The notes under the pieces were generated by a model. That model searched no databases. It was given only the letters and a program-made list of their open reading frames with translations, and was not told where the DNA came from. A program made the translations under genes and the position numbers. A stretch of DNA of 7,633 nucleotides, from the IMG/VR virus record IMGVR_UViG_2545824644_000010; one strand, written 5' to 3'. The stretch is from a virus. Taxonomy: Duplodnaviria > Heunggongvirae > Uroviricota > Caudoviricetes. Of this stretch, positions 4,638-7,241 are shown in pieces (the stretch's first letter is position 1; each line of letters starts with the position of its first letter).

Positions 4638-7241
4638 ATGGGTAAAGGAAGCAGTAAGGGGCATACCCCGCGCGAAGCGAAGGACAACCTGAAGTCCACG
4701 CAGTTGCTGAGTGTGATCGATGCCATCAGCGAAGGGCCGGTTGAAGGTCCGGTGGATGGATTAAAAAGCGTGCTGCTGAACAGTACGCCGGTGCTGGACA
4801 CTGAGGGGAATACCAACATCTCCGGTGTCACGGTGGTGTTCCGTGCCGGTGAGCAGGAGCAGACACCGCCGGAGGGGTTTGAATCCTCCGGCTCCGAGAC
4901 GGTGCTGGGTACGGAAGTGAAATATGACACGCCGATCACCCGCACCATTACGTCTGCAAACATCGACCGTCTGCGCTTTACCTTCGGTGTGCAGGCACTG
5001 GTGGAAACCACCTCAAAGGGGGACCGGAATCCGTCGGAAGTTCGCCTGCTGGTTCAGATACAGCGTAATGGTGGCTGGGTGACGGAAAAAGACATCACCA
5101 TTAAGGGCAAAACCACCTCGCAGTATCTGGCCTCGGTGGTGGTGGATAACCTGCCGCCGCGCCCGTTTAATATCCGGATGCGCAGGATGACGCCGGACAG
5201 CACCACAGACCAGCTGCAGAACAAAACGCTCTGGTCGTCATACACCGAAATCATCGATGTGAAACAGTGCTACCCGAACACGGCACTGGTCGGCGTACAG
5301 GTGGATTCGGAGCAGTTCGGCAGCCAGCAGGTGAGCCGTAATTATCATCTTCGCGGGCGCATTCTGCAGGTGCCGTCGAACTATAACCCGCAGACGCGGC
5401 AATACAGCGGTATCTGGGACGGAACGTTAAAACCGGCATACAGCAACAACATGGCCTGGTGTCTGTGGGATATGCTGACCCACCCGCGCTACGGCATGGG
5501 GAAACGTCTTGGTGCGGCAGATGTGGATAAATGGGCGCTGTATGTCATCGGCCAGTACTGCGACCAGTCGGTGCCGGACGGTTTTGGCGGTACGGAGCCG
5601 CGCATCACCTGTAATGCCTGGCTGACCACACAACGTAAGGCGTGGGATGTGCTCAGTGATTTCTGCTCGGCGATGCGCTGTATGCCGGTATGGAACGGGC
5701 AGACGCTGACGTTCGTGCAGGACCGGCCGTCGGATAAGGTGTGGACCTATAACCGCAGTAATGTGGTGATGCCGGATGATGGCGCGCCGTTCCGCTACAG
5801 TTTCAGCGCCCTGAAGGACCGCCATAATGCCGTTGAGGTGAACTGGATTGACCCGGATAACGGCTGGGAAACGGCAACAGAGCTTGTGGAGGACACGCAG
5901 GCCATTGCCCGTTACGGTCGTAATGTCACGAAGATGGATGCCTTTGGCTGTACCAGCCGGGGGCAGGCGCACCGCGCCGGGCTGTGGCTGATTAAAACAG
6001 AACTGCTGGAAACGCAGACCGTGGACTTCAGCGTGGGCGCAGAAGGGCTTCGCCATGTGCCGGGCGATGTCATTGAAATCTGCGATGATGACTATGCCGG
6101 TATCCGCACAGGCGGGCGCGTGCTGGCGGTGAACAGCCAGACCCGGACGCTGACGCTCGACCGTGAAATCACGCTGCCATCCTCCGGTACCACGCTGATA
6201 AGCCTGGTTGACGGAAGTGGCAATCCGGTCAGCGTGGAGGTTCAGTCCGTCACCGACGGCGTGAAGGTGAAAGTGAGCCGGGTTCCTGACGGCGTTGCCG
6301 AATACAGCGTGTGGGGACTGAAGCTGCCGACGCTGCGCCAGCGACTGTTCCGCTGCGTGAGTATCCGTGAGAATGACGACGGCACGTATGCCATCACCGC
6401 CGTGCAGCATGTACCGGAAAAAGAGGCCATCGTGGATAACGGGGCGCACTTTGACGGCGACCAGAGCGGCACGGTAAACGGTGTCACGCCGCCAGCGGTG
6501 CAGCACCTGACCGCCGAAGTCACCGCAGACAGCGGGGAATATCAGGTGCTGGCGCGCTGGGACACGCCGAAGGTGGTGAAGGGCGTGAGCTTCCTGCTTC
6601 GCCTGACCGTGGCAGCGGATGACGGCAGTGAGCGGCTGGTCAGCACGGCCCGGACGACGGAAACCACTTACCGCTTCACACAACTGGCGCTGGGGAACTA
6701 CAGGCTGACAGTCCGGGCGGTAAATGCCCGGGGGCAGCGGGGCGATCCGGCGTCGGTATCGTTCCGGATTGCCGCCCCGGCAGCGCCGTCGCGGATTGAG
6801 CTGACACCGGGCTATTTTCAGATAACCGCCACGCCGCATCTTGCGGTTTATGACCCGACGGTACAGTTTGAGTTCTGGTTCTCGGAAAAACGGATTGCTG
6901 ATATCAGGCAGGTTGAAACCACAGCCCGCTATCTTGGCACGGCGCTGTACTGGATAGCTGCCAGTATCAATATCAAACCGGGCCATGATTATTACTTTTA
7001 TATCCGCAGTGTGAACACCGTTGGCAAATCGGCATTCGTAGAGGCTGTTGGTCGGGCGAGCGATGATGCGGAAGGCTATCTGGATTTTTTCAAAGGTCAG
7101 ATAACCGAATCCCATCTCGGCAAGGAGCTGCTGGAAAAAGTCGAGCTGACGGAGGATAACGCCAGCAGACTGGAGGAGTTTTCGAAAGAGTGGAAGGACG
7201 CCAACGATAAGTGGAATGCCATGTGGGGCTGTCAAAATTGA
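4638..7241 (+). CDS. J: Host specificity / central tail fibre protein, lambda gpJ-like; N-terminal 867 codons ending at a premature in-frame TGA (frame disrupted, so possibly a pseudogene fragment or sequencing error)
   Basis: ORF 4638..7241 with GGAG at 4626-4629, 8 nt upstream of the ATG. The translation [41 protein letters not shown]... is recognisable as lambda gpJ throughout. From memory lambda gpJ is about 1130 aa, so a stop after codon 867 is premature, and J-like coding sequence continues downstream in the +1 frame. Confidence 0.9.

Follow-up and report, generated by a model that had tools for sequence, protein, structure and literature searches.

In phage lambda, the alpha-helical shaft of the tail protein J ends with helices 841-861, and beyond it come a beta-prism central straight fibre and then the receptor-binding domain that binds LamB (PMC11101478). 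The J gene of the DNA analysed here (hereafter the window, the whole stretch of 7,633 nucleotides) has the same Pfam architecture as lambda gpJ (1132 aa; PDB 8IYK, 8XCG-8XCK), and the gene order H-M-L-K-I-J is common to both. Unlike that of lambda J, the frame in the window breaks off behind W863, where the shaft ends, so that the distal parts lie out of frame or off the contig.

Several described kinds of frame interruption, natural and technical, lend themselves to comparison. Single frameshifts in tail genes are common among the defective prophages of E. coli, and the frameshifted genes of defective lambdoid prophages resemble the present case in that a large structural gene is cut short by the gain or loss of one base at a short homopolymer; unlike those pseudogenes, however, the contig bears no other decay and its lesion is present in no second genome searched. 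At the prfB site, a Shine-Dalgarno sequence lies 3 nt upstream of the codon at which the +1 frameshift takes place. The window resembles a prfB-type frameshift solely in having an in-frame UGA at which a +1 shift would regain the frame, whereas a shift-prone P-site codon, a well-spaced Shine-Dalgarno sequence, conservation and structure are all lacking from it. Contingency loci possess a long mutable run, typically of at least seven identical bases, with length variants among strains; a phase-variable homopolymer was considered and rejected, the run at our site being of three to four G, with in-frame alleles only in 5,426 complete E. coli genomes. Finally, the window can be set beside the consensus and homopolymer indel errors of draft assemblies of repeated prophage DNA: its G run has a one-base indel close to where a short, repeat-prone contig stops, this indel is a singleton, and the string is an exact hybrid of two coexisting alleles. 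Unlike in a general homopolymer error, the other runs of at least four bases in this contig are correct.

The tail module and the reading frame of J

An exact-protein look-up identifies the window as the entire 7,633-bp contig AVRH01000020.1 of the draft assembly GCA_000462285.2 of Escherichia coli TW07509, the two sequences being identical. A literature search found no paper on this strain, and a search by accession turned up only a different contig of this assembly, mentioned in an unrelated context. The window contains the distal tail module of a lambda-like prophage, all on the plus strand: the 3' 744 codons of the tape measure gene H (1-2235; PF06791 and PF09718), the intact minor tail genes M (2232-2561) and L (2561-3259), the intact tail gene K, coding for a JAB/NlpC-P60 peptidase (3265-4008), the intact tail assembly gene I (4005-4577) and, from 4638 onwards, J. 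Gene order and gene lengths agree with those of annotated relatives. As called and annotated, gene I starts at 4005 and has 190 codons, the same as in relatives; a longer ORF for I, of 223 codons from ATG 3906, is also open and would share about 100 nt with K. Two long antisense frames are open on the minus strand, one opposite J (5427-7259, 610 codons, TTG start) and one opposite M, L and K (2459-3460, 333 codons), and most likely arise incidentally from the codon composition of the sense genes.

The contig starts at an in-frame ATG, codon 110 of gene H, and ends inside J, 38 nt beyond position 7595, at which lambda/434-type and 1137-aa-type J genes cease to match the window. The last 38 nt belong to a J C-terminal type other than those of lambda and 434. 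At both ends, the contig appears to stop at a repeat or mosaic boundary within shared prophage DNA. Along its length, the window is mosaic with respect to the prophage of strain 2014C-3061 (NZ_CP027548), being near-identical over 1-750 and from about 5750 on, and differing at 34-75 positions per 250 bp over about 1000-3500, a region that covers the 3' part of H, M, L and the start of K. Identity to strains MEI1O2-23 and cM8a is a fairly even 98% along the window. This mosaicism is typical of lambdoid recombination.

We find that the frame of J is interrupted as the first-pass annotation had claimed. The 5' ORF (4638-7241) comprises 867 codons, of which 1-863 are authentic J, followed by GCQN out of frame and by the premature TGA (7239-7241) that results from the frameshift. 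The +1 frame is closed for the last time at 7147-7149 and from there reads as J without a stop up to 7633; J codons 864-998 (7228-7633) lie in this frame, hold the rest of PF09327, corresponding to the central straight fibre, and are still open at the contig end. The switch had been placed within 7150-7238, and in accordance, one extra G is the sole difference between the window and the intact J of NZ_CP027548 over 7150-7300. The G run occupies 7225-7228, and W863 is encoded by TGG at 7224-7226. The attribution of the frameshift to one surplus G in this run stands as far as a single inserted base is concerned; it is to be refined in that, measured against a second allele, the T at 7230 may equally be called as the extra base. 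The site is therefore best given as GGGGCT at 7225-7230, with one G over the allele GGGCT or one T over the allele GGGGC. In comparison with two relatives (97.7% and 98.1% identical), the sole gap across the 7633 bases falls at the frameshift site, and the BLAST rows spanning it (the best 40 and the best 30 rows, and a spread sample of 60) are all one base shorter, modulo 3.

Many E. coli J genes, including those of CFT073 and ST131 strain 2822, match positions 6900-7633 in two pieces with an extra 84 nt (28 codons) between them, so that the fibre region varies in length without a change of frame.

The window does not show the one continuous frame of about 1130 codons found in lambda-type J, as a stop stands at codon 868 unless one base is removed. 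Upon removal, the two segments abut without loss, as had been anticipated, giving a repaired translation of 998 codons that is stop-free and gapless against intact J. Removing the G yields a product that is 99.4% identical, without gaps, to the J of 2014C-3061 (NZ_CP027548, 1132 aa) and has zero amino-acid mismatches to it beyond residue 800, and removing the T yields an equally stop-free frame of 998 codons that carries G864, like other relatives. The annotation of TW07509 now lists two ORFs for J, one of them ERC62310.1. Judged from these alignments, it is a single inserted nucleotide at 7225-7230 that interrupts one lambda-type tip-attachment gene J.

What does the break remove? The intact relative aligns over 1-1131 with residues 1-1131 of the solved lambda J (8iyk_J, 8IYK and others), and given this colinearity, lambda numbering is valid here. 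Its Pfam domains are FNIII-A_GpJ (86-207), Phage-tail_3 (330-498), Ig_J (610-714) and Ig_J_second (716-818), followed at the C-terminal side by Phage_Tail_Tip (PF09327, 845-972) and by Ig_GpJ_C, the receptor-binding domain (1008-1132). Within the window, the 5' ORF matches PF24801, PF13550, PF24421 and PF24489 and the +1 segment matches PF09327, while the receptor-binding domain PF12421 (about 1008-1132) falls beyond the contig end. The break after W863 splits PF09327, with profile positions 2-21 upstream and 22-138 downstream of it. As written, the 867-aa product retains the hub, the two FNIII domains and the alpha-helical shaft, and is devoid of the central straight fibre and the receptor-binding domain. 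The Pfam assignments, by which most of PF09327 is removed together with PF12421, agree with the earlier statement that the lesion, if real, truncates J at residue 867 and deprives it of its distal receptor-binding part. From the comparison with lambda we infer that such a truncated J could neither bind the receptor nor pass on the opening signal; since tails carrying it would be unable to bind the receptor, no infectious particles would be formed unless by recombination with the J of another prophage.

Two natural alleles around codon 864

At the junction of shaft and fibre, J codon 864 (7227-7230) is naturally dimorphic, coding for Ala (GCT) or Gly (GGC). Allele A, found in NZ_CP027548, reads ATG TGG GCT GTC (W-A-V; GGGCTGTC), and allele B, found in strains MEI1O2-23 and cM8a, reads ATG TGG GGC GTC (W-G-V; GGGGCGTC). 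The window reads ATG TGG GGC TGT C (GGGGCTGTC), that is allele A plus a G and equally allele B plus a T, and thus is an exact hybrid of the two.

Both in-frame alleles are abundant. Across 5,426 complete E. coli genomes, exact 30-mers with identical flanks match at 343 places (317 genomes) for allele A and at 929 places (817 genomes) for allele B. The same 30-mer search, validated by its recovery of the two in-frame alleles, found the hybrid at 0 places, and the stop-bearing arrangement occurs at 0 of the 1,272 places with identical flanks. Likewise, the hybrid was not found in GTDB representative genomes, one per species (40-mer and 24-mer), or in IMG/VR or JGI metagenome contigs (24-mer). 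The protein cluster of the J product has 8,237 members, and among public assemblies the exact 867-aa product is present on the source contig AVRH01000020.1 only. At least three records (NZ_CP025916, NZ_CP025920 and NZ_CP025910) carry both alleles at separate loci of one chromosome. Complete E. coli genomes contain a median of 2-3 J-like places each, with a maximum of 12-15.

Origin of the extra base

How did the extra base arise? We assign a probability of about one half to an origin in the sequencing or assembly of the draft genome, the real J being intact, and lean slightly to such an artefact over a real mutation; everything else is very improbable. The in-frame alleles TGG-GCT-GTC and TGG-GGC-GTC, being common, identical in their flanks and able to coexist in one genome, could supply the material for it. 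Reads of both alleles may have been stacked with gaps (GGG-CTGTC over GGGGC-GTC) and bases preferred column by column, which would produce GGGGCTGTC, and the contig would accordingly be a collapsed repeat assembled from mixed reads of paralogous prophage copies. A plain overcall from G3 to G4 would give the same string. Given that the window is the exact hybrid of the natural alleles GGGCT and GGGGC, a consensus from mixed prophage-copy reads presents itself as a third origin, beside overcall and mutation. Assemblers confronted with repeated prophage DNA yield short contigs that break off within shared modules. The window is a short contig, lies wholly in a tail module common to E. coli prophages and ends inside J. 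The lesion is situated about 400 bp from the contig end, is a singleton and is the one indel in 7633 bp; the other tail genes are intact, and past the break J has no amino-acid change with respect to intact J.

Two observations qualify the way in which an artefact could have arisen. The first-pass annotation had spoken of a typical homopolymer miscall, a description that is weakened by the 90 other runs of at least four bases, out of 91 in the contig and including two of G6, which are correct by comparison with relatives. That the longer runs (two G6 and several G5) are all correct argues against a platform-wide homopolymer problem. In addition, 58 sites over 6500-7633 separate the window from an allele-B relative, and at these the window follows the allele-A haplotype almost throughout. 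With flanks so much like those of allele A, a mixed-copy consensus needs a second copy that is near-identical locally.

A genuine and very recent +1 insertion in an allele-A J, by replication slippage from GGG to GGGG, which would make J a pseudogene, is a serious contender, falling short of even odds. Slippage from G3 to G4 is a common, classic spontaneous mutation. From 6500 on, the window departs from NZ_CP027548 by substitutions at 6982 and 7446 and the extra G only, as expected from a single slippage event in allele A, and the clean homopolymers elsewhere in the contig give no sign of error-prone sequencing. Yet the lesion recurs in no other genome or metagenome searched, and the exact protein has no occurrence beyond the source contig; confined to a single genome, the lesion has no inheritance by which the mutation could be proven real. 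No further decay accompanies it in 7.6 kb, and with the end of its short repeat-prophage contig 400 bp away, the site falls where consensus errors concentrate. The earlier suggestion of a decaying prophage gained no further support, as none of H, M, L, K and I is disrupted or abnormal in length.

Translation might also compensate for a real insertion, although this we regard as very improbable. A ribosome making a +1 shift at AAU-UGA (7236-7241) or at the G run would restore full-length J, and the arithmetic alone speaks for it: skipping the T of the TGA regains the J frame with four residues substituted and length unchanged, a shift at the stop giving MWGCQNEQ where J has MWAVKIEQ. Against this, the arrangement is conserved at none of the 1,272 places with identical flanks, the 119 nt of RNA downstream are no more stably folded than shuffled sequence (z = +1.09), a search of the window against Rfam gave no match, and GGGG stands 7 nt from the would-be shift codon, as against 3 nt for the prfB Shine-Dalgarno sequence. 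As known from the prfB site, an asparagine tRNA cannot re-pair from AAU to AUU, and transcriptional slippage calls for more than four G in a row. Even less credit is due to a natural two-gene layout, a functionally split J whose hub and fibre/receptor parts are made separately, the second from the +1-frame ATG at 7216-7218. The gene caller did place an ORF at 7216-7633, starting at this ATG and matching PF09327, but the break lies inside that one Pfam domain, all the homologues listed run continuously across the site, and by eye no well-placed ribosome-binding site precedes ATG 7216. J homologues that naturally end here were looked for and none was found, the stop being carried at 0 of the 1,272 identical-flank places, which all but refutes two genes. 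Taken together, the lack of a recoding signal, of RNA structure and of conservation speaks strongly against a programmed frameshift as well as against a natural layout of two genes, and bears out the first-pass annotation, which had seen neither programmed frameshifting nor a downstream structure here. There is likewise a very slender chance that the extra base is real and that some functional J is nevertheless made, through rare +1 slippage or through a fibre/receptor fragment assembling on the truncated hub. If true, J rescued in this manner would represent an unrecognised way of throttling or splitting a tail-tip protein, and in the slippage version a four-residue variant would be placed at the junction of shaft and fibre.

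An ordinary frameshift in a well-known gene

Given that the extra base stems from an assembly error or else from an inactivating mutation of very recent date, the frameshift is ordinary: a one-base change in a well-known gene, an error or a fresh pseudogene, and nothing about it points to a novel mechanism. Should it prove an artefact, the outcome is a correction to the draft assembly and its annotation. Where in-frame alleles differ beside a homopolymer, as do GGGCT and GGGGC, a hybrid indel should be suspected as a consensus error before a pseudogene is called, a caution that concerns repeat-derived contigs and alleles with adjacent substitutions around a homopolymer. If the extra base is real, one prophage of TW07509 would be unable to make receptor-binding tails, a case of routine prophage inactivation.
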